From positions 11,114 through 75,113 of the IMG/VR virus record IMGVR_UViG_3300037200_000088: 64,000 bases of DNA. One strand, 5' to 3'. Shown in pieces: positions 21,647 through 50,716 of the stretch. The notes under the pieces are model-generated. The model was not told the DNA's origin. It did not search any database and saw only the letters and a program-made list of their open reading frames with translations. Source of the DNA: a virus. Each line of letters opens with the position of its first letter. The stretch's first letter is position 1. The position numbers were made by a program, and so were the translations under genes.

Positions 21647-22429
21647 TTAGATCGACGCCATCAGGAGGCCCGCTGCTAAGCCCTTTGGTCTGGCACTCCT
21701 GTTCTGAGCAATTTTGCTCATAAGGGCGCAAGATTCAGGAGATCGCTTTTTGCCACGGTTTTTCGCAGCAGCCTTGGCGCGTGCCTCAGGGGTGTGAATA
21801 AGCGCGACGCACTTGGCTATTGTTTGAGCGGAGGGCGGCGGACGGTTGCGCGCTGCGACACTTCGTCTATCGCGCGTCTCATCGCTTTGATTGAGAACGG
21901 CTTGTCTGATCAGCTCGCAGGTTTCTTTGGAATGCGCGTACCCGCTCTTAGCGCGCCTTCCGGCTACAGCCGCCGCGATATGCTCAGGCGTTCGGTTGAG
22001 AGCGGCGACCCGTTTTCTTTCCCGCGTTTCGGGCGAGTCGATACGTCCCTTTAGGGCCGCGCTTCGCTTTGTCTTTGTGAGGGGCGCCGTCCGTCTCGAT
22101 ATTTCCCCAATGAGCCGCTTTCCAGCCTCGGTGTGTTTATGCCCAGACGCGCCCTCGCCACCGTCCGTCAGATTGAGCAGCGGGCCACCATGCCGATTGC
22201 GACCGATTGAAGCAATCAATGCCACTTCTAGTTCGTAGGCGGCAGCCTCGGTTAAGTTTTCGCTGACCTTCGCGATGGGAAGCTCGCCATATTTCCTAAT
22301 GAGGTTGCGAAGATGCTTGTTGTGATCGCGGCGAGGCGTATAGCATCGCCGTCCGACGCCCTTTCCAACGTAGCATGGCGCGCCATTTGGGCGGAAAATC
22401 ACATACACGTAGAACCGAGAATCGCTCAT
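21647..22429 (-). CDS. Free-standing GIY-YIG-like homing endonuclease with NUMOD3-like repeats
   Basis: FYVYVIFRPNGAPCYVGKG..R; E..LI..IGR; LLNLTDGGEG; HTE../DSPETR/HSKETC repeats. Confidence 0.85.
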   Translation of the reverse strand: MSDSRFYVYVIFRPNGAPCYVGKGVGRRCYTPRRDHNKHLRNLIRKYGELPIAKVSENLTEAAAYELEVALIASIGRNRHGGPLLNLTDGGEGASGHKHTEAGKRLIGEISRRTAPLTKTKRSAALKGRIDSPETRERKRVAALNRTPEHIAAAVAGRRAKSGYAHSKETCELIRQAVLNQSDETRDRRSVAARNRPPPSAQTIAKCVALIHTPEARAKAAAKNRGKKRSPESCALMSKIAQNRSARPKGLAAGLLMASI

Positions 22430-22457
22430 GCCCGCACTTATAGCATGATTGTCTCAG

Positions 22458-22949
22458 CTATTGGGCGATCGGGAGTCCTGCTGAAAGTCCGGTGTTCATT
22501 AATCCGTTCCCCAATACTTCCGACGTCGCGATGAAGTCGAAGGCCCAGACATTGAGGCCGCCCTCGGTAGAGTAGCCGATGTCTGATTGTTTGATGAAAG
22601 CCCCGGCGGTCGCAACAATCGCGTCGCCACTGACCGGATTTGCGATCGTCAGGATATTCTGCCCCCAGTATGCCGCCGATTTTGATTGATAGGCGTAAAG
22701 CTGGTTCATCAGCGCATTGCCCGTCGCCGTCTTCAAGAGCGAGATCGTGATGCGGCTCGCCGTCGTCGCCTTCAGCGAGTGCATGCCGTCGCCATTCGCG
22801 CCGATCGTCATCGTGTTTTTGTCAGAGGACATCGCAATGCGAATGCTCTCATCCGAGACGCCAGACGAGGCTATATCGAAGTTTCCGCCAGGGCCTGAGA
22901 TAGATGCCTGAACGTCAAAGAACGAATAGACGCCACTTTGGACGGCCAT
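22458..22949 (-). CDS. Tail tube protein (DUF3277-like)
   Basis: YSFFDVQASISGPGG...KNTMTIGANGDGMHSL; follows sheath. Confidence 0.9.
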   Translation of the reverse strand: MAVQSGVYSFFDVQASISGPGGNFDIASSGVSDESIRIAMSSDKNTMTIGANGDGMHSLKATTASRITISLLKTATGNALMNQLYAYQSKSAAYWGQNILTIANPVSGDAIVATAGAFIKQSDIGYSTEGGLNVWAFDFIATSEVLGNGLMNTGLSAGLPIAQ

Positions 22950-23003
22950 GTTACTGTCTCCGGCGAGTTAGTGTGATGTAGTATTCAAGAATAGGCGACA
23001 GTA

Positions 23004-24521
23004 TCACGGGTTGATGTTCAAAAGTACGTCAGCTATTTGCACGGCACCTGCCAACTTCGCGGCCACCTGAAATGGAACGCTGATACGTTCTTCTCGCAAG
23101 TTCTCGGCCTGCGTAGCAACAGGAGGATAATATATGTAGTACCCCTTTGTAAGTATCTGCCCGTTCTGCAATTGGCCGAAGCCATCTGCGTTCCATTGTC
23201 CCGGCGCCATCAGCCCATTGTTGATACCGGCCTCGCAGCCTGCCGCAATCGCGGTCGCGATCTGGTTAGACCCGGCATCGGTCTGCGGAATCTTCGTGCC
23301 GGTCGTGTAGAGCAAGTTGAACACGTCGGTTTGGATTTGGTTCTGCAGCCAATCGACGCCCTGGACCTCATCGAACCAGTAGCCGTTGGTCATCTGGCCG
23401 TTCCAAATCATCACCGCGCCGTTGGACACTGTGATGTTGACGTTGCCGCCCTTGCCGATCAGCGTCGCGAACTGCGTCTCGTTGAGTTGTTCGGCCTGGA
23501 GGCCCGGCGCCTGCTTGTAGGCCAGGGTCAGCGTCGTATCGTTGCCCTCGAAATCGACGGTGAAGCCGCGCCCGAACATCGTCGCGACCGCGTAGGGGTT
23601 GAACGCCGAATACATCCAGAACATTTTGCGGTTGTTGAGCGATTGTAGCACGCTCCCCAGGTCGGCCGTTTGCGTCGGGTCCATCACATTTGTGTTTTGG
23701 ATCGTCGTGCCGAACATGCGCTGGCGCTGGCCGGCGAGGATATAGGCGCTGATCGCGATGTAGTCGGCCTGGACGAGCTTGACGGTCGTGGCGTCCATCA
23801 ACCCGTACCACTGCGAGGAGGTCGCCACGCAGGCCTGTACGCCGCTCAGCGCGCTCTCGGCGTTCTGCCCCGGGATCAGTGGCGAGGCGCCGGAGGCGGA
23901 CGTAAGGCCGAGCAAGGTCGAAATGTCGGTGGTGCCGCCGATCGCCGATGACGTTGAGCCGAACGAAACCGAGGAAGCCGGGCCGGTCGTGTTGCTGGTG
24001 ATGACGAATTGGGTTTCGGCGGAATTCCAGACGCAGGTAACGCCGGAGGTGAAAGCAGCGACCAGCGCGGTTTGAATGATCGACGCCACGCCGTTCATGT
24101 TCAACGCGGCCGAGAAGTTCAGCGGTTGGATATTGGCCGCGACGCCGTTGACCGAAATGCGAAATGATCCATCCGTGATCGCGGTGAAGTTCGAGAGCAG
24201 CGCCTGAAGCGGGTTGAGCGTCGCGGCGCCCAGCATGCCGGCGGTTGCCGTGCTGGCCCAGCGGCCGATATAGACGATCGCGGGCTGCGGCGACTGTTCA
24301 AAAAACAACTCCGCCGCCAGATATTCTGGAGTGTTCGAGGCGAAGTCAACCGCGACCTCCTCAAAGCCGGAATACTGGCGGATGCGTTCATTGGTGTTGA
24401 TGACGTTGGAGTCTCCCAAGATCAACAATGTACCAAAGTTCTCGAACGGGACTGCCGTCGGCGTGAACGAGACGGCTACGTTGACGAAGTCCGAGACGTC
24501 GACCGCAATCACGTTTGCCAT
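23004..24521 (-). CDS. Tail sheath protein (DUF3383)
   Basis: PEYLAAELFFEQSPQP..YIGRW; DWLQNQIQTDVFNLLY..KIPQTDAG; KLAGAVQ. Confidence 0.92.
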   Translation of the reverse strand: MANVIAVDVSDFVNVAVSFTPTAVPFENFGTLLILGDSNVINTNERIRQYSGFEEVAVDFASNTPEYLAAELFFEQSPQPAIVYIGRWASTATAGMLGAATLNPLQALLSNFTAITDGSFRISVNGVAANIQPLNFSAALNMNGVASIIQTALVAAFTSGVTCVWNSAETQFVITSNTTGPASSVSFGSTSSAIGGTTDISTLLGLTSASGASPLIPGQNAESALSGVQACVATSSQWYGLMDATTVKLVQADYIAISAYILAGQRQRMFGTTIQNTNVMDPTQTADLGSVLQSLNNRKMFWMYSAFNPYAVATMFGRGFTVDFEGNDTTLTLAYKQAPGLQAEQLNETQFATLIGKGGNVNITVSNGAVMIWNGQMTNGYWFDEVQGVDWLQNQIQTDVFNLLYTTGTKIPQTDAGSNQIATAIAAGCEAGINNGLMAPGQWNADGFGQLQNGQILTKGYYIYYPPVATQAENLREERISVPFQVAAKLAGAVQIADVLLNINP

Positions 24522-24533
24522 TTGGTTGGTCCC

Positions 24534-25160
24534 TTATTCGACGAGCGGGTTGACGCTGAACGGTGTCTGCAGCGGATCGGTCAGATCGCCGTCGTGCTGA
24601 TCCGTGAGGATCGTCCCCTGCATTTCCAGAATGTTGAGGATCGGCCACACCAGCGTCGTGCGGCGCCGGAACATGATCTGAATATCGGCGCGGCGCAGCG
24701 TTTGGTTGTTTACGATCTCAGGCAGAAACACCGTCTTGCCGGGTATCTCCATAAGCGCGAGGCCGGAGTTGTAGAGCGTCTCGCGGTTTTGCGGGATCAT
24801 CAGGCCGGTGCGCAGTAGCTTGGCGTTGCCGCGCGCGGTGGGTCCGTAGAAGCTCGCCAGCACGGTCACGGTGTCGACGTCGTAGGAGATCGTCGAGCCT
24901 TGGCCCGCGCTCAGGTGGACCTGGCTGATGTTGGGCTCGGGGTCTTCGTCGGTTATCCCGATCGCGCACCAGTCGACGGACGGCTCGGGAACGGGCGGCG
25001 GACGTGGCTGCCACCGTGGTCTGATCAGATTGCCCGGGAGCCCCGTGACACCCACGACGAGAGCCTGAAGGATCTCGTCAAGGGCAGTATCTTCAGGCGG
25101 AAGACCGGCCGGCGCCGGGCTGAGAAACCCGCCAGTAGAACTGTCGTTAGTGTTGGCCAC
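24534..25160 (-). CDS. Tail terminator / neck protein
   Basis: NDSSTGGFL..VVGVTGLPGNLIRPRWQP..DWCAIGIT. Confidence 0.8.
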   Translation of the reverse strand: MANTNDSSTGGFLSPAPAGLPPEDTALDEILQALVVGVTGLPGNLIRPRWQPRPPPVPEPSVDWCAIGITDEDPEPNISQVHLSAGQGSTISYDVDTVTVLASFYGPTARGNAKLLRTGLMIPQNRETLYNSGLALMEIPGKTVFLPEIVNNQTLRRADIQIMFRRRTTLVWPILNILEMQGTILTDQHDGDLTDPLQTPFSVNPLVE

Positions 25161-25469
25161 TTACGCCTTGACGGCTTTCTTCAGCGCGACCCCGAACTTG
25201 GTCCCGTCCCAAACATGCGGCTTTTTCATGCGTGGCTTCGGCGCGCCCATTTGCGCGAGAATGTGCGGCGCGCCGAGATTGAGCTTTGGCTTGGTCAGCA
25301 TGTGCATCACGTAGTTAACGCGACCGCGGTCGGCCATCGCTGGCGTCTTGAAGCGTGAGTCTGGGAAGCCAAGATTTGCTGCCTCAAGGAAAGGCGCGGC
25401 TTGCTCCGCGGTGAACGCCTTCGCCTCGGCAGGGAAGGCGGCGCGAATGTCGTCAAAGCTGATAGCCAC
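25161..25469 (-). CDS. Divergent DUF4054-like head-tail adaptor paralogue
   Basis: IRAAFP...HML...WDGTKFG parallels FRIVFPEF...HNI...YNATSYG of 27522..27947. Confidence 0.5.
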   Translation of the reverse strand: MAISFDDIRAAFPAEAKAFTAEQAAPFLEAANLGFPDSRFKTPAMADRGRVNYVMHMLTKPKLNLGAPHILAQMGAPKPRMKKPHVWDGTKFGVALKKAVKA

Positions 25470-25479
25470 GGTGGCTCCT

Positions 25480-25872
25480 TCAGGATGTGGGGTTCAGCGG
25501 CAAGAGGTCGCAGCCCGCTTTCACGAAGCCTGGACCGAACGCCGAATAATCCTCGACGCTGATCACCGTAAAAACGCGCGAGTGCCAACAAATCGTATCG
25601 GCGTCACGGTACGTCGAGTCGTTGGTCTTGTATCCGGCGCTCAGCGGGTAGGCCGTGAACACTTCGATGTAGGCGACGACCCGCGAGCCATCGTCGCCGC
25701 GGCGTAGATTGGACTTGCCTGGCACAACGATCGCGGTGACCGTCTCTGGAAAGTTTGGCGTCACGACGTCTTCACCGCCCGTGCCGATAACGCCCTGATT
25801 GACGGTGACGGTTATCGTGTCGGTGAATTCCGGACTGTCGAGTACATCCTCAAATGAAAGGCTCGGGGGCAT
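25480..25872 (-). CDS. Head closure / head-tail joining protein
   Basis: DVLDSPEF..ITV...DADTICWHSRVFTV...DYSAFGPGFV. Confidence 0.75.
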   Translation of the reverse strand: MPPSLSFEDVLDSPEFTDTITVTVNQGVIGTGGEDVVTPNFPETVTAIVVPGKSNLRRGDDGSRVVAYIEVFTAYPLSAGYKTNDSTYRDADTICWHSRVFTVISVEDYSAFGPGFVKAGCDLLPLNPTS

Positions 25873-25878
25873 CTTTCG

Positions 25879-26106
25879 CTATTCGCCCCCGATTGAGAAT
25901 TCGTAGCGACGACCGCCACGGTCTATGACGCCGGCAACCGAGCGCTCAGCGCTTGAGACTGTCGCCGCCGCCAAGCAAAGCTCACCGCCGATCAGCGTGG
26001 CGCCGTTCAAATTGGCGATATAGTTTCGCAGCGCTGACGGCGGTTCGGCGAACAGATCGCAAAGCGCCTCATGTTGCTTGCGGTCTAGCGCGTCTGTGCC
26101 TGCCAT
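25879..26106 (-). CDS. Hypothetical protein
   Basis: 75-aa ORF co-oriented with the operon. Confidence 0.5.
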   Translation of the reverse strand: MAGTDALDRKQHEALCDLFAEPPSALRNYIANLNGATLIGGELCLAAATVSSAERSVAGVIDRGGRRYEFSIGGE

Positions 26107-26162
26107 AGGGTTTCTCGCTATTTCGGGCGAATGACGAAAGTCACCGCGGCATGTCTCAGTTT

Positions 26163-26948
26163 TCAGTATCCCCGAATTTTCCTCAGCGCCGCGGCGATCA
26201 TTTCGTGTTCTTCGGCGGTGCCTGAATTCTTGATCGAGTTGGCCCTCCTGCCGACAATCCAGACATTGCCGGGCTCATAGCCGCGAGACGAGTCGATGCG
26301 ATCGATCGACGGGGAATAGATACCGTCGCGAACTTCTGGTGCCGGCCAAGGATGGCCGAGCAAAGGACAGTAATCACCCATCGGAGGAATGTCGCCTAGA
26401 ACAATAGTAAATGTTCGGCCCATCCGTTTAGACCGGTGCTTAGCCTCTGCATACAGGAGCTTCACTATATTATTGGCTCGGTACCTGCGCGCTCTTGCCC
26501 GAAGAACTAGGACAGGTGTGTTTTTACGGCATTTTTTGTTTGATTCTTTCGCCCGTTCGGGGTGTCGCTCGCGATACTTCTTGGCATGAGCAATGCGACG
26601 AGCGGCGAACGCGACCGGATCGCCCGCCCTTAATTCGGCCTCATATTGCCGCTGCCGCGCAACCCTGCGCTCACGAAGCTCGCCGTCAGTCTTTGTCTTC
26701 GGTCGCCCGGTTCGCTTTATTTTCTGGTATTCGCGCAGGTCTTCGGCCGTCTTTATCTCAGGTGGGACAGGATTAAGCTCGCGATAGCGCCGCCTTCGTA
26801 TGGCTGCCTTCTCGGCTTCCCTCTTGTTATGCCCCACCGGATCGATCGCTTTTCGCTCAAGATAATACTCGTGCGCGCGCCTTAGTTTACGTTCTCGCGC
26901 CTCTTCAACGCTGTATTTTCTGGGCCGTCCGGTTTTTGACATATACAA
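26163..26948 (-). CDS. Free-standing HNH-like homing endonuclease
   Basis: CPLLG...SPSIDRIDSSRGYEPGNVWIVGRRANSIKN; basic N-terminus with two KxTGRPxK repeats. Confidence 0.8.
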   Translation of the reverse strand: MYMSKTGRPRKYSVEEARERKLRRAHEYYLERKAIDPVGHNKREAEKAAIRRRRYRELNPVPPEIKTAEDLREYQKIKRTGRPKTKTDGELRERRVARQRQYEAELRAGDPVAFAARRIAHAKKYRERHPERAKESNKKCRKNTPVLVLRARARRYRANNIVKLLYAEAKHRSKRMGRTFTIVLGDIPPMGDYCPLLGHPWPAPEVRDGIYSPSIDRIDSSRGYEPGNVWIVGRRANSIKNSGTAEEHEMIAAALRKIRGY

Positions 26949-26957
26949 ACGTTATCA

Positions 26958-27512
26958 TCACTTGGCCCGTATAACAAATGATATGCTGTTTCTCAACGCC
27001 CCCGTGTCAATCAAAGGACTGAAGTCTCCGCCCATCCATTTCGCCATCATCGTCGATTTGCGCGCGTCGCTGGCGTTCTGATAGCCGACCTTGCGCCGCA
27101 GCCGAGCGGCCTTGGTCGCATCCTTAATCGGGACGAACGGCCCATCGGTGATCTTCAATTGGACCGCGGCGGCGGCGGCTAGACCTACCGCAACCAGTTG
27201 CTGTGTGACGTCGCCGACGCTCTTGAAGTCTAGCGCGAGCTCGCCGGCCTTTTTCAGCTTCGGCAGCAGCGCTGGCATTGCGCCTTGAACGCCGGGGACG
27301 AGGAATGGCCGCGCCGGGATGTTCTTGATCGGCGAGCCCGTTTCCATGATCCAGCCGAGCTGTGCGTTGTTAATCGGGCTCGGCTTGGCGCCTGGCGCGT
27401 CTTGGCGCTCAGCGTTCTCGGCCGGGATCCCCACGAGGACTTCGTTTTTTGTGAGAGTGCGAACAGCCTTGAGGACTTCCTCGACTTTGTCTTTCGTTAT
27501 ACGAACGCCCAT
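26958..27512 (-). CDS. Neck / tail-completion protein
   Basis: EVLVGIP..NNAQLGWIMETGSP..IPARPFL...PLIDTGALRNSISF. Confidence 0.85.
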   Translation of the reverse strand: MGVRITKDKVEEVLKAVRTLTKNEVLVGIPAENAERQDAPGAKPSPINNAQLGWIMETGSPIKNIPARPFLVPGVQGAMPALLPKLKKAGELALDFKSVGDVTQQLVAVGLAAAAAVQLKITDGPFVPIKDATKAARLRRKVGYQNASDARKSTMMAKWMGGDFSPLIDTGALRNSISFVIRAK

Positions 27513-27521
27513 CGGTTGCAA

Positions 27522-27947
27522 TCACCGCAGGAACCGATTGCCAAACCCAAACACAGTCCGGCGCGGCGGCGGCGCAGCATAGAGCCCGCCCATCGCGGCC
27601 TGCTCGATAAGCTTCCAGAGCCGCTGCCCGTAGGACGTGGCGTTGTAGATCCCCGCGCCTTCCGTCGTCGCTACGTTGACGTCGTAGGACGCTGAGAGGC
27701 CGCCTGCAGCCTTGGACGTCAGCGGAGCAACGGTGGCGCCGGGAGTACCGCCCTTGGAGGCTGCGGCGGCCGTCTGCATGCCCAGCACGATGTTGTGCGC
27801 CGCGAACAGCATTACCGCGAGATCGAAGCTAGTCCCGAGGCGCGCTGGATTGAACGTCGCCTGCGTGAACCAATAGGCGACCTGGTCATCGCTGGCGGTT
27901 TCCGCAAATTCCGGAAATACGATCCGAAATGTCGGAACGTTAGGCAC
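27522..27947 (-). CDS. Head-tail adaptor (DUF4054)
   Basis: FRIVFPEF...LFAAHNI...SKAAGGLSASYD...NATSYGQR. Confidence 0.85.
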   Translation of the reverse strand: MPNVPTFRIVFPEFAETASDDQVAYWFTQATFNPARLGTSFDLAVMLFAAHNIVLGMQTAAAASKGGTPGATVAPLTSKAAGGLSASYDVNVATTEGAGIYNATSYGQRLWKLIEQAAMGGLYAAPPPRRTVFGFGNRFLR

Positions 27948-30751: not shown

Positions 30752-31732
30752 TTAGGCGAAGTGCCGAACTGGGGCGGCGTTCGGAAACATCTTTTTGAAT
30801 TCCGCCTCGGCGTCGTCGGTGCGAACCGCTTTTGAATCGCCGACCAGCGTCGTTTGGCGCTCGCCCGGCTTCGGCGTCATCTTGATCAGCGATCGGAGCG
30901 CGCTTGCGTGAACCTTGTCCGCATCGGGGATTTTGAGCATGATCGCGGCGGCGCGCTCGATTTCCTCGGCGCTGTCGTAAGCGATGGCGAGGGTTCCGAC
31001 CCACGGGCGGACGAACGCTTCAGCGTCACGGGCGCCGCGCATTTTCGCCATGATACGCGCCTCGGTTGCTTTGGAGGCGGCTTGAACGGCCTCATCCATC
31101 GCCCCTTGGTTGATCGGCGGGTCAGCGGCGTCGCGGGCGGCTTTGTCCTTGGCGGCCTTGTCCTCGGCCTCCTTTTTCTCCTTGGCCTCGCGCTTCTCCT
31201 TTTCCTCTTCGGTCTCGTCCTTGGCTGCCTTGTCCTTGGCGGCCTTGGCGTCGCGAGCCTTCTTGTCCTTGGCCTCTTTTTCCTTCTTTTCGCGGGCCTC
31301 TTTTTCTTCCTCGGTCTCGTCGGCCTCGTCTTTGGCCTTTGGCTTTTCCTCGGCCGGGTCCATCTCATCGAACGCGCCGAGGAACGCGGCGAAGTCATCC
31401 AGCTTGGCGTCGCTCGCCAACTTGCCCTTGGTCGCCGCCGTCACGCCCGCGATGATCGCCGGCTTGCTGGCCTTGAAATTCAAATGGGTGATCTCGGCAA
31501 AGACAGGCGTCAGATCAGGCTTGGCGTCGGCGGCCAGCTTGCCGGCCAGATACCCAATCGACGCGCCCTGAACAAGGAGCGCCTTGCGGCTTAGAACTGC
31601 GGTGGTCATGGTTGGCTGCTCCTTCGTTGACTGGTCTTCTGCGAGCAAGGACTCGTCGAGTCCAAGCGCTTTCAGGGCCTCTTGCGGCGTTTTGAACTTG
31701 TTTCGGAGCGCGGCGGCGAGCGGCGATTTCAT
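30752..31732 (-). CDS. Capsid scaffold protein
   Basis: Charged KAKDE../AARD repeats; AMD...VRPWVG..AYDSA; between protease and cement genes. Confidence 0.75.
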   Translation of the reverse strand: MKSPLAAALRNKFKTPQEALKALGLDESLLAEDQSTKEQPTMTTAVLSRKALLVQGASIGYLAGKLAADAKPDLTPVFAEITHLNFKASKPAIIAGVTAATKGKLASDAKLDDFAAFLGAFDEMDPAEEKPKAKDEADETEEEKEAREKKEKEAKDKKARDAKAAKDKAAKDETEEEKEKREAKEKKEAEDKAAKDKAARDAADPPINQGAMDEAVQAASKATEARIMAKMRGARDAEAFVRPWVGTLAIAYDSAEEIERAAAIMLKIPDADKVHASALRSLIKMTPKPGERQTTLVGDSKAVRTDDAEAEFKKMFPNAAPVRHFA

Positions 31733-31737
31733 TGGAG

Positions 31738-31766
31738 TGGCATTCCGAAAACCCTTCGGCTATCGT
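31738..31766 (+). promoter_or_regulatory. Putative promoter for a leaderless transcript of the antisense endonuclease
   Basis: TGGCAT-17 nt-TATCGT, 6 nt before ATG 31773; no RBS. Confidence 0.4.
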
Positions 31767-31772
31767 GGGTTG

Positions 31773-32597
31773 ATGGCGATCATGACCGCGCAACCGAAGA
31801 CGGATTTCTACGTTTACGTGTTATTTGACGCTGACGGCGTCCCCCGCTACGTCGGTAAGGGACGGCTCGGCCGCTGGAATGGGCATGCGCAGAAGCCGTT
31901 CGTGGCTGCCTCCATTGCGGCCTTTGGCGATGTACCGAAGGTCAAGGTCCGGGAGCAGCTTTCCGAATACGAGGCCTACTCGATCGAGCACGCGCTGATT
32001 TGCTCACTGGGACGCGCGCCTGATGGGCCGCTTGTGAACCGCACGGACAAAGGAAGTGGTCCGAATAGTCGGCAAGTTGCCGACTGGCACGCGTCGAGGC
32101 CGTTCGAAGACCGATCGGCAATCGCGAAGAAAGCGCGCGCGACGTGGCGGGAGCGCACTACGCCCGAGCAGCGTAGTGCGACCGGCCGGGCGAACGCGTT
32201 AGCACATGGAAGCGAGGCGATCAGTGAGCGTTCGCGGCGGACGCGCGCGGCCGAAACGCCAGAGGAAAAATCACTTAGAGGACGGGCAGGCGGTCTTGCC
32301 TCAGCAACCGCGCTCACTCCCGAACAGCGGAAGGGCCGCCGCAAGGGCCTCACCGTATATTGGGAGAACACAACACCTGATGAGCGACGCTCAATTGCGA
32401 AGAAAACCGGACTGGGCAGAGCGGCAGCTTCCGACCTTAGCGCTTGGGGCAAGCGCGGGGCCACCTCTCTTAACGGTTCACGAACGCCCGCGGAACGATC
32501 TGCGCTCGCGAGAAAGGCCGCGCTAGCCGGCGCAGCGAAGCGCCTACAGGCCGCGCAGCGCGCTCGAGATCAACTCCCACTCGCGATCGAAGATTGA
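31773..32597 (+). CDS. Free-standing GIY-YIG-like homing endonuclease (antisense)
   Basis: FYVYVLFDADGVPRYVGKG..R; EAY.IE.ALI..LGR..GPLVNRT; TPE(Q/E)RS repeats. Confidence 0.85.
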   Translation: MAIMTAQPKTDFYVYVLFDADGVPRYVGKGRLGRWNGHAQKPFVAASIAAFGDVPKVKVREQLSEYEAYSIEHALICSLGRAPDGPLVNRTDKGSGPNSRQVADWHASRPFEDRSAIAKKARATWRERTTPEQRSATGRANALAHGSEAISERSRRTRAAETPEEKSLRGRAGGLASATALTPEQRKGRRKGLTVYWENTTPDERRSIAKKTGLGRAAASDLSAWGKRGATSLNGSRTPAERSALARKAALAGAAKRLQAAQRARDQLPLAIED

Positions 32598-33158
32598 CGC
32601 GTCACCAATCAATACGTCAGGCCCCGCCCTTCCTTCGACCACTATCGCGACATGATTTCCTACGATAGCCGTCATTCGGCCATCGTAGGATTCACCCTGA
32701 AATGCGCCGGGCTCCATGATTGGTTTGTAAGCATAACTGCATGACAACTCTCTTTTGAGTCCTTCCTCGATCTTCTCGATATCTGAGGCTGGCCAGACGA
32801 CCAGGCTGTTGTCGAGGTAGGGGAACGTGAACTTGGCGTCAGTTCCGGTTGACCCAACGACGAGGTCCGGTTTGTGATCCTTGGCCGTGTGAGCGACGTG
32901 ACGGCTCATCAGCGGAATGTTGTTGAAGCTTTCGGCGGCGGCTTCCAATTCTCCGGGATCTCTAAACATTTTGTAGGCGCGGTCGCGGTCGAGCCCCAAC
33001 TCTTGCCAATGCGGAATTTCGCGACCGAAGTATGTATTGACCACGGCCTTGCTGATATGCGCCGAGCCAACGTGCAGCCGGCCGTAAATGTCATAGCGGC
33101 GCGTCGACTCGCCTGGCTGCGGCTGGCGGTCGAACGCCAGAGCCGGCTCAGTCGTCAT
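32544..33158 (-). CDS. Prohead protease-like protein (DUF2213)
   Basis: ISKAVVNTYFGREIP; RELSCSY; NHVAIVVEGRAGPDV. Confidence 0.88.
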   Translation of the reverse strand: MTTEPALAFDRQPQPGESTRRYDIYGRLHVGSAHISKAVVNTYFGREIPHWQELGLDRDRAYKMFRDPGELEAAAESFNNIPLMSRHVAHTAKDHKPDLVVGSTGTDAKFTFPYLDNSLVVWPASDIEKIEEGLKRELSCSYAYKPIMEPGAFQGESYDGRMTAIVGNHVAIVVEGRAGPDVLIGDASIFDREWELISSALRGL

Positions 33159-34149: not shown

Positions 34150-34454
34150 GCCGCCAGGCGCTTGTCGAGCATTGGTCCAAACGGAGTGTAACTCATCTTG
34201 GGAAAGAACTTCGGGTCGTAATCCGGGCTCCATGGGCGCATCTTTCGAAGGACGTCCTCGGGCCACATCCCCATCCCAGGGCACATCTCCGGCGGATATT
34301 TGGCCGCGAAAGCGCATGCGCCTGCGAACGTAGCGTCTACCATGTCATAGTCAGGCGATGGATTGATGATCCGCCAAATCCCCTGATACGGCATTATGTG
34401 CGGCCGATTTCGCTGGCGGGCGATCTGCCGCTCGCGCGCAAAGGGATCACTCAT
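34146..34454 (-). CDS. Hypothetical protein
   Basis: Overlapping start/stop chain with neighbours. Confidence 0.6.
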   Translation of the reverse strand: MSDPFARERQIARQRNRPHIMPYQGIWRIINPSPDYDMVDATFAGACAFAAKYPPEMCPGMGMWPEDVLRKMRPWSPDYDPKFFPKMSYTPFGPMLDKRLAA

Positions 34455-38592: not shown

Positions 38593-39177
38593 CTAATCCT
38601 CCGCACCGTTTATCAAACGCTGATACGCCTTAGCGGCTTCAACAGGGTCGGTTGTGGTAATGCCGACGGTCTGCATCGGACCGCCGTTCGGGCCGGAATG
38701 CTCGACCGCAACCTTCTCGCGCCACGCCTCTGGTCGGCGATTTGCAAGCCAATGCTTAGCCGCTCCTGGATCAGGCGGCACATGCTCAACGAGATCAGCG
38801 CGGACTATCTGGCCATTGTTTTGAAAGACTTTCTCGCTTTCAAAGCTGTAGCCGACCGCGCGCTGATACATCGCGCGCTCAACCCGATTGTCCGCAGCCT
38901 CTTTTCCGACCACAGATGCATTACAAAAATCTTCATGTTCGATGCGCCACCGGTGGATAGTAACGGTAGAAACATTGAAGAAACCAGCTATTTCGTAGTC
39001 GGTTGCGCCAAGCTCGCACAGCTTGCGGATTTGCTCGACGAATTCCGGCCTGTAGCTCGTCGGCCTGCCGCGGCCTCGGGGCTCCTCGGCTTCCTGGAGG
39101 ATAGGCTCGTCGGCGATCACGCTTTGGCTTTCTGCAGGCGATGCCAAGTCGCCTTGCTGACACCCTCGGCCAGCCAA
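38593..39177 (-). CDS. terS: Terminase small subunit
   Basis: GRPTSY..CELGATDYEIAGFFNVS..TIHRW HTH; PPD..AA..WLANRRP..WRE. Confidence 0.9.
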   Translation of the reverse strand: MAGRGCQQGDLASPAESQSVIADEPILQEAEEPRGRGRPTSYRPEFVEQIRKLCELGATDYEIAGFFNVSTVTIHRWRIEHEDFCNASVVGKEAADNRVERAMYQRAVGYSFESEKVFQNNGQIVRADLVEHVPPDPGAAKHWLANRRPEAWREKVAVEHSGPNGGPMQTVGITTTDPVEAAKAYQRLINGAED

Positions 39178-39214: not shown

Positions 39215-39814
39215 CTAGCCTTGGATCGCGAGAGGAAAAAACCGTCGATACCATGTCGCCTTACTCACCCCGACTTCATTCCACGGCATTTCCTCATATT
39301 TGCGAGGGCGGCCGTTCTTGCGCTTCGGCGGCGGGAGGATCTCCCCCTCCAGCGGAAGCCGATGCTCATGCTCACGCATCGGAGGCCCAGCCATTGCGCG
39401 TTCGCCACCAACGATCGGCGCGACGCCATGATACGCCTCGACCAGGCGAGCCAGTTCTGGCGTTCGGCGAAACCATTCGCCGACCATTCTTTGGGTCGCG
39501 AAAATAGCGTGAAAGGCCGTCTCAAGTCTTTGACTCCCCGGCGTCTTCGCGAGAACCTTGAGGCGCTCTGGATTGCCGGTTTGAATTTCCTTAACCCGCT
39601 GCTCGGGTGCCTTGGATGTGTATCCGATCTTGATCGGACCATCGGTGGCGCCGATGAAATAGACGTGGCCGATTTCCCGGTGCTCAGGCTGCAAAATCTC
39701 GACGTCATCGCCGCACCCACAGCATCTCAGGCAAGCAGATCGTTCAAAAATCTCGGTCAAGAAATCAGAGCCAGAACACCGCTTGCACGTCATTTCTAGT
39801 TTCGCCATCACCAC
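39215..39814 (-). CDS. GIY-YIG (T5orf172-like) nuclease with a Zn ribbon and C-terminal HTH
   Basis: VYFIG...IKIGYT..PEQRVKEIQTGNP...E..FH..F...GEWF; PW..GVSKATWYRR. Confidence 0.85.
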   Translation of the reverse strand: MVMAKLEMTCKRCSGSDFLTEIFERSACLRCCGCGDDVEILQPEHREIGHVYFIGATDGPIKIGYTSKAPEQRVKEIQTGNPERLKVLAKTPGSQRLETAFHAIFATQRMVGEWFRRTPELARLVEAYHGVAPIVGGERAMAGPPMREHEHRLPLEGEILPPPKRKNGRPRKYEEMPWNEVGVSKATWYRRFFPLAIQG

Positions 39815-41629: not shown

Positions 41630-41632
41630 GGC

Positions 41633-44893: not shown

Positions 44894-44901
44894 CGCGCCG
44901 C

Positions 44902-45204
44902 TCAAAAGTCGGAATCCGGAGGCGGCGCAATCGCCGACAGCGGAACGTGCACGCCGACGTTCTCCAGCGCGAGGCGGCTCAACGGCGCCGGCTCCAATAC
45001 GAACCGGCTGCCCAGCGCCTGCGCAGCCGCAAGGTTCGCCGAGACGACTGCCGCATACTCCTCGCTCGCGCATTCTCGGCAATCCATCTCGTGAAGCTCC
45101 TTTCGAGGCGCGGCGATCTTGAGGTTTGCGGCGAGATCGTCGCGCCATTGCCGGATGAAATCCTTGCGACGCTGCGCGTCGGAAAGCTCCCAGATATTGG
45201 TCAC
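44902..45204 (-). CDS. Hypothetical protein
   Basis: Coupled to the upstream gene. Confidence 0.6.
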   Translation of the reverse strand: MTNIWELSDAQRRKDFIRQWRDDLAANLKIAAPRKELHEMDCRECASEEYAAVVSANLAAAQALGSRFVLEPAPLSRLALENVGVHVPLSAIAPPPDSDF

Positions 45205-45953
45205 GCGGTTTTAGAGACCTCCGCAAAATGCCACCCCTCAACAGAACGACCGCCGACCATCCCTCGAGTCCGAAGTGACGCCTTGTGGCCGTCTCGCACG
45301 CGAGCGTCCCACTCGGGCGTCCCGGCCTCAATGAAGACCGTTGGCGGCCCCGTTGATTTGGGCTCGTAGTCGAGGAAAAGCCGGTCGCGCACGAAGCGGT
45401 CCAGCGCGCGCGGATGGGTCGTAGGCTTGGCAGCGTGGCGCGTCGCGTACAGCCGCGCCCCAGCGATCAGCAGCGGCCACTCGGCCTCCGGAATGCCCGC
45501 AATCGCCCTTTCAACCAAAACCTGGGGATGATCGCCCTTGGGGTAGGCGGCCACCAATTCTTGAAAACATTTAGAAACATTCCCTCCCTCCTTCCCGTAG
45601 TCGGCGTCACCGTCACGCCCGTTGCTTGAGGGGGGTAAGGGGGGAAGAGTATATATATTACTTTCACAGGGGAGAACGCGCGCGCGAGAGGATGCCTCAG
45701 GCTCGGCGTCACGCGTTATGTTTGTTGCGTTTGTTACGTCACGTGACGGTTGTGACGTAACAGTTACGTCATCGTTACGCGCTTCCCGCTCCCGCGCAGC
45801 CTTATTCTCGCGATATCGACGTTGGCGCCCGGCGGCGCTGGACCGGGCGGCCGGCTCCTTGGCCGCGTCCTCCATAGCGTCAATAGCAATTAGCGCCTGC
45901 TCCAATGTGAGGCCGCTGGCGAGCATCGCGCGTATGGCCGCTCCGGTACTCAA
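45201..45953 (-). CDS. Putative replication initiator
   Basis: AAGRQRRYRE..; VT-rich linker; FQELVAAYPK; contains iteron-like repeats. Confidence 0.6.
   Translation of the reverse strand: MSTGAAIRAMLASGLTLEQALIAIDAMEDAAKEPAARSSAAGRQRRYRENKAAREREARNDDVTVTSQPSRDVTNATNITRDAEPEASSRARVLPCESNIYTLPPLPPSSNGRDGDADYGKEGGNVSKCFQELVAAYPKGDHPQVLVERAIAGIPEAEWPLLIAGARLYATRHAAKPTTHPRALDRFVRDRLFLDYEPKSTGPPTVFIEAGTPEWDARVRDGHKASLRTRGMVGGRSVEGWHFAEVSKTA
45640..45780. other. Candidate replication origin: GTTACGTCA repeats plus an AT-rich tract
   Basis: Repeats at 45733, 45752 (inverted), 45763 and 45774 (partial); TATATATATTA near 45650. Confidence 0.5.
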
Positions 45954-46600
45954 GCGCCCCCCAACCACTCTTCAATAGTCTTGGCCCCCTTTGAGCGATT
46001 ACACTGTGCGCATGCGGTTAGCAGGTTACCCTCATCATTGGAGCCGCCGCGCGACACGGGAACGACGTGGTCGACATCAAACGGGCCAGCGGTTGAGCCG
46101 CAGTAGCCGCAGGTGAAATTATCGCGACGAAGAATAGCCATGCGAAGTACCGGAGCCATCGCCGGCCTCTCAACACCAATCGAACTTATGAATGCGAAAC
46201 TCTCGTGAACACGCAATCGTCCGTCGTTGATTTCTATCAAGCCCAAGTCTACAAATCTAAGCTTAAGACGCGGCCAATCGCTGTCCTTCTCTATCCCGAG
46301 CACACGAGGAAAAAACTTCCAATTCTCATCCCGTCCGCTCTCATCAGGCGGAGAATAGGTCCAAATGCGCTTTATCGCCGACCATCGCACCAACCGCATA
46401 AAAATACGATGTTCGTGATCAGACAATTCCTCCAGTCTTGAGTCGTCCAAAAGAGAATGCGCGTAGCGAATATCGCAACTCGCCGGGCGCAAATCGCTGT
46501 AGGCCCTTTCCGGTCTTCTCGAGCGGGGCGTGAACTCCTCAAAGAGGCGATCAATCTGATCGGATATGCCAGTCAAGAGTCTTGTCCCTCCCGGCCACAT
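45950..46600 (-). CDS. HNH endonuclease with an N-terminal replication-protein-like domain
   Basis: [37 protein letters not shown]. Confidence 0.88.
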
Positions 46601-47013
46601 TGCGCGGCAAGCTTCCCTTCAAGCGCCAAAACGACCGACGCAACGAAAATATCAGACGCCAACAATCGCTCGATCTTCCGCACCGCGTGCAAAACCGTTG
46701 TGTGATCCTTCCGGCCAGTCGCGCGGCCGATCTGCGGCATGCTCTGGATGGTGAGATGCCTCGCCAGATACATCGCGATTTGCCGCGGCAAGACGACGTC
46801 CTTGGTCCGGCGCTGAGAAAGGAGTTCGGTTTGGCTGATCCGGTAGTGCGAGCAGACGACGCGCCTTATCGATGGCAAGGTCGGGCAACCAAAGCGTGAT
46901 TCGACGTGAGGCGCTGGCGGCGGGAGCAGGTAGAGGTTTCGCGCTCCGAGCGCGTCTCTGATCGCGCCGCAACGCCAAGCCTCATAGGAATCGTGGCCAA
47001 CAAACGGGATCAA
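46573..47013 (-). CDS. DnaA C-terminal (domain IV) HTH protein
   Basis: [46 protein letters not shown]. Confidence 0.9.
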
Positions 47014-47345
47014 ATGACGCCTCCGCTCTTACGTGGCCTGCCCCGCCTGCGCTTCCCCTTGGGCTTCGTCAGCGCCGGGTGATCCGCTCCCCAGACCATG
47101 AGCGTTTCAGCCGCAGAGGCTTCAGCGAAGTAGATCGGCACGAATTTGACGGCCGCGCTCTCGCCGCGTTGGCGTCTGTAGCGATCGACGTGGCGAACGT
47201 CGAAATCAAAAGACGCATTCCGTACGATAACTCTCAGCGGCTCCGGCAATGCGTCGAACGTGTCCATGGTGACTTTTTGCTCGACCATGTTTTTGCCGAC
47301 GTGGTTGCCCCCTGTCTGGTTCATTCGGCTGCCTCCGGCGTTCAT
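47010..47345 (-). CDS. Hypothetical protein (DUF6525-like)
   Basis: [17 protein letters not shown]. Confidence 0.55.
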
Positions 47346-48370
47346 CGAACGCCTCTTTGGTCAAGCGCCGACCTGCCCGGCGCAGGCTCACCGGCAACCG
47401 GAATGACAACTGCCCCGCGCTCATGGGCCGGGCGGTCTGGCTTGAACGAGGTGACGCCGCGGTCGCGTTCGGCGGCGAGCGCGCGAGCGAGCGGGTTGAT
47501 CGGGCGCCGTTCGTCGACAAGGGCATTGATCGGCGCGGCTGGAGGTTTTGGCTTTGCCTTCGTTGCGCGCATGTCTCGTGCGGCGCTAGCGATGGACACG
47601 GCTGCGGCAGACGGTTGACAAATCGGCGATATTTTCGGGTTTGGTTGCGCAGGCGCTCTGTCAACCGGGGCAATGTCCCGTTTTTCTGCATCACCTGATG
47701 TCGAAGAATGAGACATGGCGACCGGGGGCTTTCCAACGATGCGACAACCTGCGCCGATCTCCACTTCCGCGACGCGCGGAGGATCGCCAGCGGCCCAAGC
47801 TTTCATCCTGGCAGCGGCGGCGGCCCTATCGTCTGCCGGCGGCGACAAAAAATGCGCCGCGGCGATCGGCGCAGGATTGCTGGCCACAGCGGGATTTTCA
47901 GGCTCAGAAACGGCAGTTTCGGCGCCGCCGGTTTCGAGGAGCGTGACGGTGAAAAGCGCGGGCGGGTCTGCCGCGGGCGCGGCGTCCACGATAACTTTCT
48001 CGGCCTCAAGCGAGGGCGTCAAAATTTCAGACACCGAGCGATCAGTCTCCGCAATCGCGCGCGCGAGCGCAGCTTTTACGATTCGGAGATCGGCCTCAAT
48101 CCACCATTTCCAAGAGCCCTTGGCGCGGGCGCTCGCCATCTCCGCACGGGAGTTGACCCGGCGTTGCTCTACTGTAAAGCCGCACAAAAGCGCGATCTTC
48201 CGATAGTCGACAGCGGGGAACGCCTCGATCAGCGCCGCGAACGCCAGCCACCGCGCCCGGCTTCCCATCGCGCCAGAGGCGATGTCGAGCGGGTCCTCAT
48301 CGTGAAGCGCGGCGGCGGCGACGATTGTCTGCGCAATCTCGATCAGCGTTGGGTTGACAGGGCTCGTCAC
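47342..48370 (-). CDS. Hypothetical protein
   Basis: Coupled ORF; C-terminal GEPAPGRSALDQR. Confidence 0.65.
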   Translation of the reverse strand: MTSPVNPTLIEIAQTIVAAAALHDEDPLDIASGAMGSRARWLAFAALIEAFPAVDYRKIALLCGFTVEQRRVNSRAEMASARAKGSWKWWIEADLRIVKAALARAIAETDRSVSEILTPSLEAEKVIVDAAPAADPPALFTVTLLETGGAETAVSEPENPAVASNPAPIAAAHFLSPPADDRAAAAARMKAWAAGDPPRVAEVEIGAGCRIVGKPPVAMSHSSTSGDAEKRDIAPVDRAPAQPNPKISPICQPSAAAVSIASAARDMRATKAKPKPPAAPINALVDERRPINPLARALAAERDRGVTSFKPDRPAHERGAVVIPVAGEPAPGRSALDQRGVR

Positions 48371-48852
48371 GCGGCGGACCTTTCTTCGATCCGGGCGCCG
48401 GGCCTTTTTGCAGGCAACACCATGCGCCGCGCGATATGCGCCCCGTCAGCAAGCGCGTCGGCGAGAATTCGCTCAAGCACCTTCTCGCGAGACACCCCGG
48501 CCTCGAGCGCGAGTTTGTCGAGCTGCGTCACATGCCGATCGGCGACCCACGCGGAGACACGGCGGAACCCGGCGCGTTGCACGAGCGCGTGGCCCCAACG
48601 CTTGGCGTGGCGCTGAAGACTGCGAAGGGAAATTTTCAACCGGGCGGATATCTCCTCTGGCTTGTCGCCGATCGAAAGCCGCTGATTGACCAATAGCGCT
48701 TGCGCAACGCGCTCCCGGCGCCGGAGAGTCCGCCCAGTGGCTCGCGCCGCGTCTGCGGCGATCCGCGCGGCGTTCTCTTCAGGCGTCATTAGGGCGATCG
48801 TGGCCAAGCGCGCCGCGCGAAGCATCTCCCTCCAAGGCGCGTCAGGCTGCAT
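48367..48852 (-). CDS. Hypothetical DNA-binding protein (HTH plus RHH-like)
   Basis: PEEISARLKISLRSLQR; LDKLALEAGVSREKVLERIL. Confidence 0.6.
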   Translation of the reverse strand: MQPDAPWREMLRAARLATIALMTPEENAARIAADAARATGRTLRRRERVAQALLVNQRLSIGDKPEEISARLKISLRSLQRHAKRWGHALVQRAGFRRVSAWVADRHVTQLDKLALEAGVSREKVLERILADALADGAHIARRMVLPAKRPGARIEERSAA

Positions 48853-49192
48853 TCTTCGCGCACTCCGTTCCGAGACCTGACGCAAAAGCCGGACGCAACG
48901 CACCTGCAAAGATTTGGGCGATCTCGGCGTCGAACTCTTGCCGGATCGTCGAGATAAACTTGGGCTTGCCGTCTTTGTCCGCAGCGCGATCCTCGAGCCT
49001 GATCTCAGCGCGGGACTTGATGAGCTGGAGCGCCGTCGCCAGGCCATCCCAAAGCTCGGCGTCGAGCAGGACCTCGCGACACTCAGTATCTTCGTAACAG
49101 CCTGCGGTATCGCGCCCGTGCCGCGCGCGGTCCTGAAGGCGCGCTATCGTTGCGGCGAGGACTTCCCGGCCTGGCGCGGTGGCGAGGCTCAT
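48842..49192 (-). CDS. Hypothetical protein
   Basis: Coupled ORF. Confidence 0.55.
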   Translation of the reverse strand: MSLATAPGREVLAATIARLQDRARHGRDTAGCYEDTECREVLLDAELWDGLATALQLIKSRAEIRLEDRAADKDGKPKFISTIRQEFDAEIAQIFAGALRPAFASGLGTECAKNAA

Positions 49193-49500
49193 GCCGTCCC
49201 CTGCACTCTGCGGAGGGTCGCCCAGACCTCGCGTATCGCCTCGCTGTCTTCCAAGGTGGACTCGGCCGGATCGCGCTGGTCTCGTTTGACGCACCGCATC
49301 ACGGCCCAAACCGCGTCCGAGTGCGCCTGTGCGTCCTTCAGAGCCCGATCCATGGTTTCGATGAGGTTGGCGCTCGGTCTGCGCGGCGGGGCCGGTCGAT
49401 CTGGGATAAACGCCGCCCCGGCGCCGCCGGCTGCATCTTGCCTATGCCGCTCTTGCTCCTCCACGTTCGCCATTGCGGTGCTCAATGCGGAATCGGTCAC
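49189..49500 (-). CDS. Hypothetical protein
   Basis: GGAGG RBS; GTG start overlaps the upstream stop. Confidence 0.55.
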   Translation of the reverse strand: MTDSALSTAMANVEEQERHRQDAAGGAGAAFIPDRPAPPRRPSANLIETMDRALKDAQAHSDAVWAVMRCVKRDQRDPAESTLEDSEAIREVWATLRRVQGTA

Positions 49501-50084
49501 GCCGCCCTCCGTTCGCGCTTCTGGCGCGCCGTGTTGAAATCGAATGGGTTGAGCCCGAGAGAGATCGGGTCGAGATGCGGGACGGCGCGCGGCGCGACTT
49601 CGTTGCAGGCCCAGAGGAACAGACCGGCCGCATCGGCTTCGTCGTAATTCTTTGGTTCCCAGCCGAGCGCGCGGCAAACCTGCATGACCGCCGGCTTGGC
49701 GATCTGACTGCGGACGTTGCCCTTCCCAATCACAAATTTGCGGACGCGCTGAATATTCCCGAAGCGGAGATCAATCGACCGAAGTTTGCACGCGCCGCCG
49801 ATCGCTCCGATCAGGGCGAACTTGAGTGCCGTCGCCCAGGCGTTGGTTTGCGAGCCCAGCGCCTGCTCCGGTATCGGGGCCTCGATGACGACGCGATCAA
49901 ATTTCTCAACCCGAGTGAGATCGGCAAACCACTGGATCGCGCGCGCCGTCGCCTCGGCAACGCCGTCCATCGATGCGCCTTCGCCTTCGCGACTGAAGCG
50001 GATCGATCCCAAAACAGGCTTGCTTCCTGGCTCACCGTGGGCGGACCCCGTGTTTGTAGCTACGTCAAGCGCGAGTATCCTCAT
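49497..50084 (-). CDS. RuvC-like Holliday junction resolvase
   Basis: MRILALDVATNTG; VVIEAP; DEADA. Confidence 0.8.
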   Translation of the reverse strand: MRILALDVATNTGSAHGEPGSKPVLGSIRFSREGEGASMDGVAEATARAIQWFADLTRVEKFDRVVIEAPIPEQALGSQTNAWATALKFALIGAIGGACKLRSIDLRFGNIQRVRKFVIGKGNVRSQIAKPAVMQVCRALGWEPKNYDEADAAGLFLWACNEVAPRAVPHLDPISLGLNPFDFNTARQKRERRAA

Positions 50085-50716
50085 TGGCTGAGCGCCCGCT
50101 CGATCGGCCATCCGAGACGGACGTGGCGGGAATAGACTGTCTGATAAAATGAAGTTTTTGAGCCGCCGCAAGCATCGGCCAGACTCATGTGCTGTCCGTT
50201 AATCGTCACGTAGACATTTCTTCGAGTGTTGTTTGCCTGCTCGACTGTTGTGGCCCAACGACAGTTTTCCGGCTCATAGTTTCCGTTGGTGTCGATGCGC
50301 TCTATCGAGTGCGCTCCGCTCGGGCGCCGCCCCATGTCTGAGAGAAAGTTTGCGAAGTCGTCCCACCGTGAGCAAACCTCGATGCCGCGGCCCCCGTACA
50401 TATGGAAGTGGCTGTCGTTTTCGTTGCGACAACGCTTTCGAAGCCCTTCCCACACTGAATATTCTGCGGTCTTTTTTCCCGCCGCGTCCCCATGCTTCGT
50501 GTACATCAAGACTGTCTTTTCTGAGTTGTAACACCCGCAACTCAGTGTCAGTCCCGAACGGATGGATGCAATTATGATGGATTTTTCTATGCCGCAGTCG
50601 CAACGGAAAAGCCCAACCGACTTCCCTGACGGGCTATGATCTTCCGCCTCCAAATAGGTGAGACGAGTGAATCGCTCGCCCACGGCTGGATAGATGCGCG
50701 GCTTGTATTTGCTCAT
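50081..50716 (-). CDS. Free-standing HNH homing endonuclease
   Basis: CDCG..SCGC; YGGRGIEVCSRW..F..FLSDMG.RP..HSIERIDTNGNYEPENCRWAT..EQANN. Confidence 0.9.
   Translation of the reverse strand: MSKYKPRIYPAVGERFTRLTYLEAEDHSPSGKSVGLFRCDCGIEKSIIIASIRSGLTLSCGCYNSEKTVLMYTKHGDAAGKKTAEYSVWEGLRKRCRNENDSHFHMYGGRGIEVCSRWDDFANFLSDMGRRPSGAHSIERIDTNGNYEPENCRWATTVEQANNTRRNVYVTINGQHMSLADACGGSKTSFYQTVYSRHVRLGWPIERALSQ

Follow-up and report, generated by a model that had tools for sequence, protein, structure and literature searches.

Free-standing homing-type endonuclease genes in an uncultured high-GC myophage and the A/T-ending codons that lie beside them

The DNA analyzed here, hereafter the window, is a 64,000-nt stretch, from base 11114 to base 75113, of one contig of 75,113 bp with 61% GC, deposited as IMG/VR record IMGVR_UViG_3300037200_000088 and originating from a peat-metagenome assembly. 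It belongs to a tailed phage, more precisely a myophage, with genes for a DUF3383 sheath, a KPP10_Orf10 tube, a portal, the terminase subunits terS/terL, a Mu-F-like protein, and a DUF2213 "head maturation protease." The range on which we focus (21647-50716) corresponds to the late, packaging, and replication part of the genome, where endonuclease genes are interspersed with conserved phage genes. The original prediction was that five such genes each abut a patch of A/T-ending codons in a neighboring essential gene, that these patches are synonymous changes selected to destroy the site of the adjacent nuclease, making the resident allele immune, and that each patch consequently marks its enzyme's target. 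Our results support this interpretation in part: an association exists at two or three junctions, but neither the mechanism nor the predictive value is upheld.

The nucleases were confirmed, while their number had been underestimated. Six lie in the range viewed, one of which (HNH6) had gone unlisted, and a GIY-YIG paralogue found before the window brings the total to seven in 75 kb. The genes nuc1 (21647-22429, minus strand) and nuc3 (31773-32597, plus strand) are of the GIY-YIG type, with NUMOD3-like repeats; nuc2 (26163-26948), nuc5 (50081-50716), and HNH6 (45950-46600), all on the minus strand, are HNH-type; and nuc4 (39215-39814, minus strand) is a T5orf172 gene. Genes were called with a codon log-odds model, and the G+C content at third codon positions (GC3) was profiled along native genes. 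The nuclease genes have a GC3 of 0.57-0.66 (nuc1, 0.60; nuc2, 0.57; nuc3, 0.66; nuc4, 0.63; nuc5, 0.64; HNH6, 0.58), compared with 0.734 for native genes. HNH6 is a canonical HNH enzyme (PF01844, E-value 4.7e-13, 49.5 bits), while nuc4, a T5orf172/MUG113 protein, matches PF13455 (45.9 bits) and PF10544 (36.9 bits), both above the cut-off. The HNH/endonuclease VII-like nuc2, whose likely start is the ATG at 26942, matches phrog_3322 (E-value 3e-22), phrog_1035, and phrog_3118 HNH (E-value 3.8e-9), and nuc5 matches phrog_374 (E-value 4.5e-56). Neither of these two has a Pfam match, and the only families that they match are PHROG families annotated as HNH/endonuclease VII. Inspection by eye shows DRID in nuc2 and ERID in nuc5 at the place where HNH_3-type enzymes usually carry a His, and the two proteins may be divergent or inactive.

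As for the GIY-YIG enzymes, nuc1 matches phrog_314 "homing endonuclease" with an E-value of 4.6e-21, and nuc3, with the motif FYVYV..YVGKG, is its paralogue (45% identity over 94 amino acids of the catalytic domain, E-value 6e-18), an atlas search with which led to SegE/GIY-YIG clusters. The third GIY-YIG/NUMOD3 paralogue, nuc0, lies at 5439-6149 of the contig (minus strand), at least 4,964 nt before the start of the window. The three proteins share 37-45% identity across an N-terminal domain of ~95 residues as well as the pattern FYVYV..CYVGKG..R..E..N, and the GIY-YIG catalytic set (Y9, Y20, G22, R28, E68, and N86) is invariant in an alignment of 46 homologues. Pfam GIY-YIG models find no match in nuc1 or nuc3 even at E ≤5; among the 46 homologues, Pfam reports NUMOD3 in 28, LEM-3_GIY-YIG in six, and GIY-YIG in two. 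Against NUMOD3 (PF07460), nuc1 scores 17.3 bits, under the cut-off of 20.4, SPETR/TPE..R repeats being visible by eye. PDB sequence searches with nuc1 and nuc3 came back empty. An AlphaFold model of nuc1 (predicted local distance difference test score 87) has GIY-YIG domains as all of its top PDB matches, namely PD-T4-3, UvrC, and I-TevI, its N-terminal ~95 residues matching with a probability of 0.87-1.00 and a target-normalized template modeling score of 0.52-0.65 (UvrC, I-TevI). The predicted fold of this N terminus is that of I-TevI, the UvrC N-terminal domain, and PD-T4-3, with invariant catalytic Tyr, Tyr, Arg, Glu, and Asn residues, although sequence identity of nuc1 to these proteins is 16-32%. 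Its C-terminal part is a long helical array of NUMOD3-type repeats, unlike the zinc finger and helix-turn-helix of I-TevI. We assign nuc1 and nuc3 to the GIY-YIG nuclease superfamily by their catalytic pattern and, for nuc1, by the modeled fold.

The arrangement of these genes is as had been predicted. All are free-standing, Seg/Mob-like genes placed between essential genes, with their own open reading frames, outside introns and inteins. They occur every 4-7 kb in gaps between conserved genes, overlapping the end of a neighbor in the case of nuc3 (by 54 nt) and nuc5 (by 91 nt, with the longest RuvC-like open reading frame). Whole modules are thereby bracketed, in the order nuc1/tube-sheath.../nuc2/neck-capsid-scaffold/nuc3/protease-portal-terL-terS/nuc4. 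That the enzymes are active in homing is our inference. Upstream of nuc1, nuc2, and nuc3, there are boxes (TGCTATAAG, TGATAACGT, and GGCTATCGT, respectively, read from the sequence at 22427-22442, 26940-26954, and 31761-31775), those of nuc1 and nuc2 having the form TGnTAnnnT, which lie 6-7 nt before the start codons, with no Shine-Dalgarno sequence. A generic sigma-70 scan did not flag these three boxes.

Comparison of loci requires relatives, and sequenced phages offer none that is close. Megablast/blastn searches against 50,697 phage records yielded no useful match, and the best sheath match among sequenced phages has 47% amino acid identity. IMG/VR scans with the portal, RuvC-like, neck, and protease genes returned nothing, while a terS scan returned distant loci only. 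The most informative relative is a nuclease-free IMG/VR fragment, L001, whose sheath protein is 84% identical to that of the window and whose nucleotide identity to it is 76%. Among 86 related loci, none has a homologue of nuc1-5 or HNH6. Read mapping with a second peat study (X2) showed that the same phage sequence is present there, nuclease junctions included. In three further data sets (X3, X4, and X6), relatives are found only as contigs of 150-450 bp, with low cover over the nuclease bins; no contig in these sets spans a nuclease-less junction, and the low cover was not counted as evidence.

These comparisons reveal insertion polymorphism for nuc1, nuc2, and nuc3, each of which is missing from relatives at the same locus; for the nuc4, nuc5, and HNH6 junctions, there was no informative relative among the loci compared. 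With respect to L001, the nuc1 insertion spans 21322-22466 (1,145 bp, i.e., nuc1 plus 360 bp). The blastn alignment stops at 22467 and restarts at 21321, and in L001 the tube and tail-chaperone genes are separated by 12 nt. The inserted segment also holds, downstream of nuc1, a 67-amino acid open reading frame (21347-21550, minus strand) that is absent from L001 and has no PHROG match and no family. As for nuc2, the neck gene of L019 directly adjoins the homologue of the gene at 25480-25872, and in L026 a gap of 92 nt separates the two, with no nuc2 homologue between them in either locus. As for nuc3, the protease and scaffold form a single open reading frame in more than 16 portal-linked metagenome loci, while in L004 they are split but adjacent, with no nuclease in the gap where the window carries nuc3.

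The A/T-ending codons that had been quoted are present in the sequence, as direct reading confirms. When the GC3 of each patch was ranked among all same-length segments in native genes, only those in the protease (0.7th percentile) and terS (0.6th percentile) were extreme. The neck, RuvC-like, and tube-5' patches, which had also been listed, are unremarkable, falling at the 8th-13th percentile. Genome-wide, there are ~50 dips (20 codons with GC3 ≤0.45), ~45 of which are far from any nuclease gene. Of the 14 deepest 40-codon dips, three, which represent two loci, are no more than 400 nt away from a nuclease gene, a distance that includes about 7-9% of all native codons, so that 1-1.4 would be expected there; most of the 14 are found close to gene starts (within the first 100 codons), with no nuclease nearby. 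Since dips are no commoner near nucleases at the scale of a patch, composition alone fails to predict targets, contrary to what had been proposed.

What remains is confined to the junctions themselves. Within 30 nt of a nuclease gene (55 codons), native GC3 is 0.545, whereas ordinary gene ends have 0.699; between 30 and 60 nt from a nuclease gene it rises to 0.66, and past 60 nt it equals the background. This excess of A or T at third positions (A/T3) has a p of 0.04 in an end-matched permutation, and a Mann-Whitney test of nuclease-side gene ends gives p = 0.012 over 20 codons, 0.13 over 40 codons, and 0.10 over 60 codons. A/T-ending codons are therefore commoner beside nucleases, as had been claimed, for the ~10 codons that touch them, but not at patch scale, and beyond those few codons there is no real association between A/T3 and nucleases. 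One alternative explanation is that there is no link to nucleases at all, and that local codon variation, be it 5'-proximal dips, segments that are weakly expressed or evolve fast, or mosaic boundaries, was noticed by virtue of where the reader looked. The ~45 dips elsewhere, the 5'-proximal location of most of the deepest ones, and the lack of significant enrichment at patch scale are all in its favor, while the p values of 0.04 and 0.012 for nuclease-side codons speak against it. Weighed with the evidence from individual genes that follows, an absence of any link seems doubtful to us.

The flank of nuc1 can be compared directly with L001. In the tail tube gene (PF11681; 22458-22949, minus strand), the window has an A/T-ending codon where L001 has a G/C-ending one at 34 codons, and the reverse is true at 15 (p = 0.009), or 23 versus 10 when only synonymous changes are counted (p = 0.035). 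The other four genes compared (sheath, chaperone, and two tape-measure genes) are symmetric. That the only shifted gene of the five is the one touching nuc1 argues against an absence of any link. However, the shift is gene-wide, and 11 of the 34 shifted codons are non-synonymous, which makes the tube gene look like a different allele with lower GC3, not like a short synonymous scar. Within it, the patch at the 3' end has a GC3 of 0.50 (4.7th percentile), an effect limited to about 5-10 codons, and the 5' patch is at the 8th percentile. Synonymous divergence, measured as the fraction of amino acid-identical codons that differ between the window and L001, was supposed to be raised beside the nuclease, and it is not: the last 60 tube codons give 0.30-0.35, versus 0.33-0.49 by gene elsewhere. 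The lack of an excess beside nuc1 argues against immunity scars.

The largest of the patches, at the 3' end of the sheath gene (23004-23290, minus strand), has a GC3 of 0.56 (3.7th percentile) and lies ~600 nt from nuc1, with the tube gene between them. In a codon alignment, the GC3 of the same codons is 0.47-0.60 in the window and 0.53-0.63 in L001. Since a nuclease-free relative has this dip too, the patch must be either older than nuc1 or unrelated to it. The dip is thus an inherited one that is not tied to the nuclease, a finding that goes against scars and is in keeping with codon variation unconnected to nucleases. Separately, the sheath segment at 23300-23648, when aligned with L001:2-350, shows a synonymous difference of only 0.07-0.36, versus 0.4-0.8 in the rest of the alignment, which places a mosaic (recombination) boundary between the window and L001 near 23300, ~840 nt from nuc1.

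The best case for nuclease-linked recoding is the protease patch (32597-32765, minus strand; GC3 0.49), which takes in the final 57 codons of the DUF2213 protease domain, and it is only there that the picture originally drawn holds, descriptively. The patch begins at the stop codon of nuc3 and spans the conserved ...ELSCSYAYKP...IVGNHVAIV.EGRAGP.V.IGD segment. In 17 nuclease-free relatives with a GC content of at least 60%, the GC3 of this region is 0.71-0.81, versus 0.47-0.60 in the window, and the absence of the dip from all 17 is difficult to reconcile with variation that has nothing to do with the nuclease. At residues conserved with the relatives, the window uses A/T-ending codons at 16 of 33 positions in the patch versus 14 of 71 elsewhere in the gene (Fisher p = 0.005, post hoc), while the share of such codons in the relatives at the same residues is about 25% in the patch and 22% elsewhere. 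A location immediately next to the nuc3 stop, in the most conserved part of the domain, and with synonymous changes at conserved residues speaks for scars. Protein identity to the closest relatives is slightly lower in the patch, at 0.63-0.74 versus 0.76-0.84 in the rest of the protein, with one homologue (P0122) flat at 0.67. The claim of recoding in the protease is therefore borne out as a window-specific synonymous shift at conserved residues, but a co-converted donor tract fits equally well. In practical terms, the nuc3-protease junction offers a defined 170-bp stretch that would be a sensible first substrate for cleavage mapping.

The terS patch (38890-39000, minus strand; GC3 0.43) lies over the helix-turn-helix and encodes GATDYEIAGFFNVSTVTIHRW. 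Its coverage of this conserved element is compatible with a scar. On the other hand, it does not abut a nuclease gene, as had been stated, since it starts ~200 nt from nuc4, which goes against that interpretation. GC3 is low along the whole of terS (0.61), and it is also low in the two relatives profiled, both of which are loci with lower GC than the window (0.59 in L082, with a locus GC of 0.57, and 0.42 in L019, with a locus GC of 0.51), as would be expected if nucleases played no role. At the 3' end of the neck, or tail completion, gene (phrog_222; 26958-27025, minus strand; GC3 0.59, 13th percentile), only the last ~8 codons are A/T-rich, and these adjoin the TGATAACGT box upstream of nuc2. 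The 5' patch of the RuvC-like gene (phrog_159; 50005-50084, minus strand) has a GC3 of 0.59 (11th percentile), and ordinary gene 5' ends are also lower in GC3. In both the neck and RuvC-like genes, the effect is limited to about 5-10 codons. Since the A/T-rich ends of the tube and neck coding sequences are immediately followed by TGnTAnnnT boxes, they may overlap with the edge of the inserted cassette or with the start region of the nuclease gene. Next to the neck patch, at ~27020-27095 (minus strand), the neck protein has ~19 extra residues (VGYQNASDA...KSTMMAKWMGGDFS) with respect to L019, L026, and L042, which precede a conserved C-terminal motif.

Such boxes, and the fact that pac sites often lie within terS, raise the alternative that the patches are DNA-level signals unrelated to immunity, i.e., a pac site in terS, promoters or starts of nucleases written over the 3' ends of upstream genes, and a terminator of nuc3 in the protease. 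The boxes preceding nuc1 and nuc2 directly follow the stop codons of tube and neck, which would place a -35 element or spacer over the final codons of these two genes. However, consensus promoter matches number 4 versus 5.2 expected, and terminator matches 17 versus 21 expected; a repeat search found no notable repeats in terS; and signals of this kind would cover at most 10-15 codons per junction. We regard this alternative as highly improbable.

In our view, the phage has probably been colonized by homing-type genes, and the A/T runs reflect a mixture of codon fluctuation, a tiny junction effect, and two flank shifts resembling co-conversion. Ordinary fluctuation in codon usage would account for the patches at the sheath 3' end and in the neck, RuvC-like, and tube-5' regions. 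The ~10-codon junction effect would most likely arise where the edge of a lower-GC cassette, or the start signals of a nuclease gene, overlap the end of the neighbor. The tube gene as a whole and, in the protease, the final 57 codons would each represent a flank copied during homing from a donor allele with lower GC3 (co-conversion), and a cleavage-resistant site may sit inside either of these shifted tracts. Cassette edges and co-converted flanks would explain the surviving signals at least as well as immunity scars.

Several points weigh against this interpretation. The junction effect rests on 55 codons. Co-conversion we infer from composition alone, with a close nuclease-free relative for only two of the six junctions. 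The synonymous divergence of the tube gene from L001, at 0.43, is not clearly greater than that of its neighbors (0.33-0.49), and a recent allele swap is therefore not demonstrated. A donor for the flanks did not come to light either, since searches of phage records gave no DNA-level match to any nuclease-plus-flank. Finally, the p values of the protease and tube tests are inflated because the segments tested came from the reader's eye.

As for immunity scars, they have further points in their favor, namely that A/T3 is enriched in the codons touching nucleases and that free-standing T4 nucleases cleave nuclease-less alleles close to where their own genes are inserted, as is generally known and as PMC10448857 also states. 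However, the patches are 70-340 bp long, when one or a few changes would give resistance; the model provides no reason for a consistent drift to A/T; dips that are equally deep or deeper occur with no nuclease nearby; and, of the seven patches named, three reach only the 8th-13th percentile. Selection for immunity is thus a very unlikely origin for the patches. A looser version, in which a synonymous footprint of A/T-ending codons can be read in the DNA beside free-standing homing nuclease genes of high-GC phages (here in the protease patch and tube gene) and marks either a recoded, resistant target or a co-conversion tract, also appears unlikely. If it were true, composition and a single relative could serve to narrow down both the targets and the history of homing.

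The Seg and Mob nucleases of T-even phages provide the obvious precedent, with intronless homing, exclusion of nearby markers, and co-conversion of flanks from cleavage sites that may be distant (PMC10448857). As with the T4 Seg (GIY-YIG) and Mob (HNH) genes, among which are SegF, SegG, and SegE, the genes described here are free-standing, located in gaps, and present or absent among relatives, and the composition of the flank is disturbed on the nuclease side. In nuc1 and nuc3, the likeness to Seg extends to the combination of a GIY-YIG catalytic domain with NUMOD3-like repeats, a difference being that Pfam GIY-YIG models miss both proteins. In contrast to T4, the window phage is an unrelated 75-kb myophage with 61% GC, known from metagenome sequence alone. 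Barth et al. (2023) described genes for T5orf172, HNH, and other nucleases that are located at boundaries of genetic exchange and bracket terminase, capsid, scaffold-protease, and tail modules, and called these "HEG islands" (homing endonuclease gene islands; PMC10448857). Here too, T5orf172, HNH, and GIY-YIG genes sit beside terminase, capsid, scaffold-protease, and tail genes, with whole modules bracketed, and there is a mosaic boundary in the sheath gene (window versus L001). The defining trait of HEG islands is, however, a high nucleotide identity of the module between distant phages, of which the window gives only a hint, in the sheath (23648-23330) and with one relative. The phage is therefore a densely colonized new example, in an uncultured high-GC lineage, of a kind of nuclease invasion that is itself already known. 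A difference between resident and naive alleles near a nuclease is already in the literature; what would have been new, the use of composition alone to reveal targets, does not hold here. Had composition marked targets, it would have supplied candidate sites for thousands of uncharacterized phage homing nucleases without experiments. This shortcut fails here because many dips occur elsewhere and the largest is present without a nuclease too.

Some observations concern other parts of the genome. The deepest dips (53548-53667, 45086-45205, 47603-47722, and 34156-34275), with a GC3 of 0.35-0.42 over 40 codons, are all more than 700 nt away from any nuclease gene, and most of them occur near the start of a gene, within its first 100 codons. 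A gene encoding 705 amino acids at 52-2169 (minus strand) is a strong compositional outlier among late genes, with a GC3 of 0.52 and a G+C content at second codon positions of 0.64, and holds six of the GC3 dips of the genome.

The organization of the protease and scaffold genes also deserves mention. The scaffold gene (30752-31732, minus strand) covers positions 201-424 of phrog_2229, and the DUF2213 gene covers positions 3-184. The fact that these are two halves of one PHROG profile, and that fusion is seen in the closest long homologues (73% and 67% identity), was why we considered whether nuc3 had split a fused protease-scaffold gene. Among homologues, the architecture is fused in 1,455 long proteins and split in 181 short ones. 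Of the best protein relatives, P0121 and P0122 are of the fused form and presumably come from nuclease-free genomes, while P0242 and P0243 are of the split form, the tail of P0243 being identical to that of the window protein at 13 of 17 positions. The idea was rejected, since stand-alone proteases exist in the nuclease-free loci L004 and L067 and in P0242-P0244. The proteases of P0243, L004, and L067 share the W..I..AL tail of the window protein, and the scaffold genes of L004 and L067, neither of which has a nuclease, start with the same TP.EA.K.LGLDE.LL extension (architectures compared over window 30752-33158, L004:10184-12312, and L067:14600-17773). Since nuclease-free stand-alone forms share both tail and extension, the split is an older alternative architecture. 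The tree of the protease domain is unresolved, so that gain and loss cannot be ordered. A duplicated linker flanking nuc3 was also considered and found no support at the nucleotide level. The gap between the split genes is a hot spot for insertion, occupied by nuc3 in the window and by an XRE-like helix-turn-helix open reading frame at L067:15938-16402. At the far end of nuc3, its last 18 codons (32544-32597) are exactly antisense, codon versus codon, to the last 17 codons and stop of the protease gene, and the stop codon of nuc3 pairs with the codon for Ser in the GDAS of the protease, being its complement.

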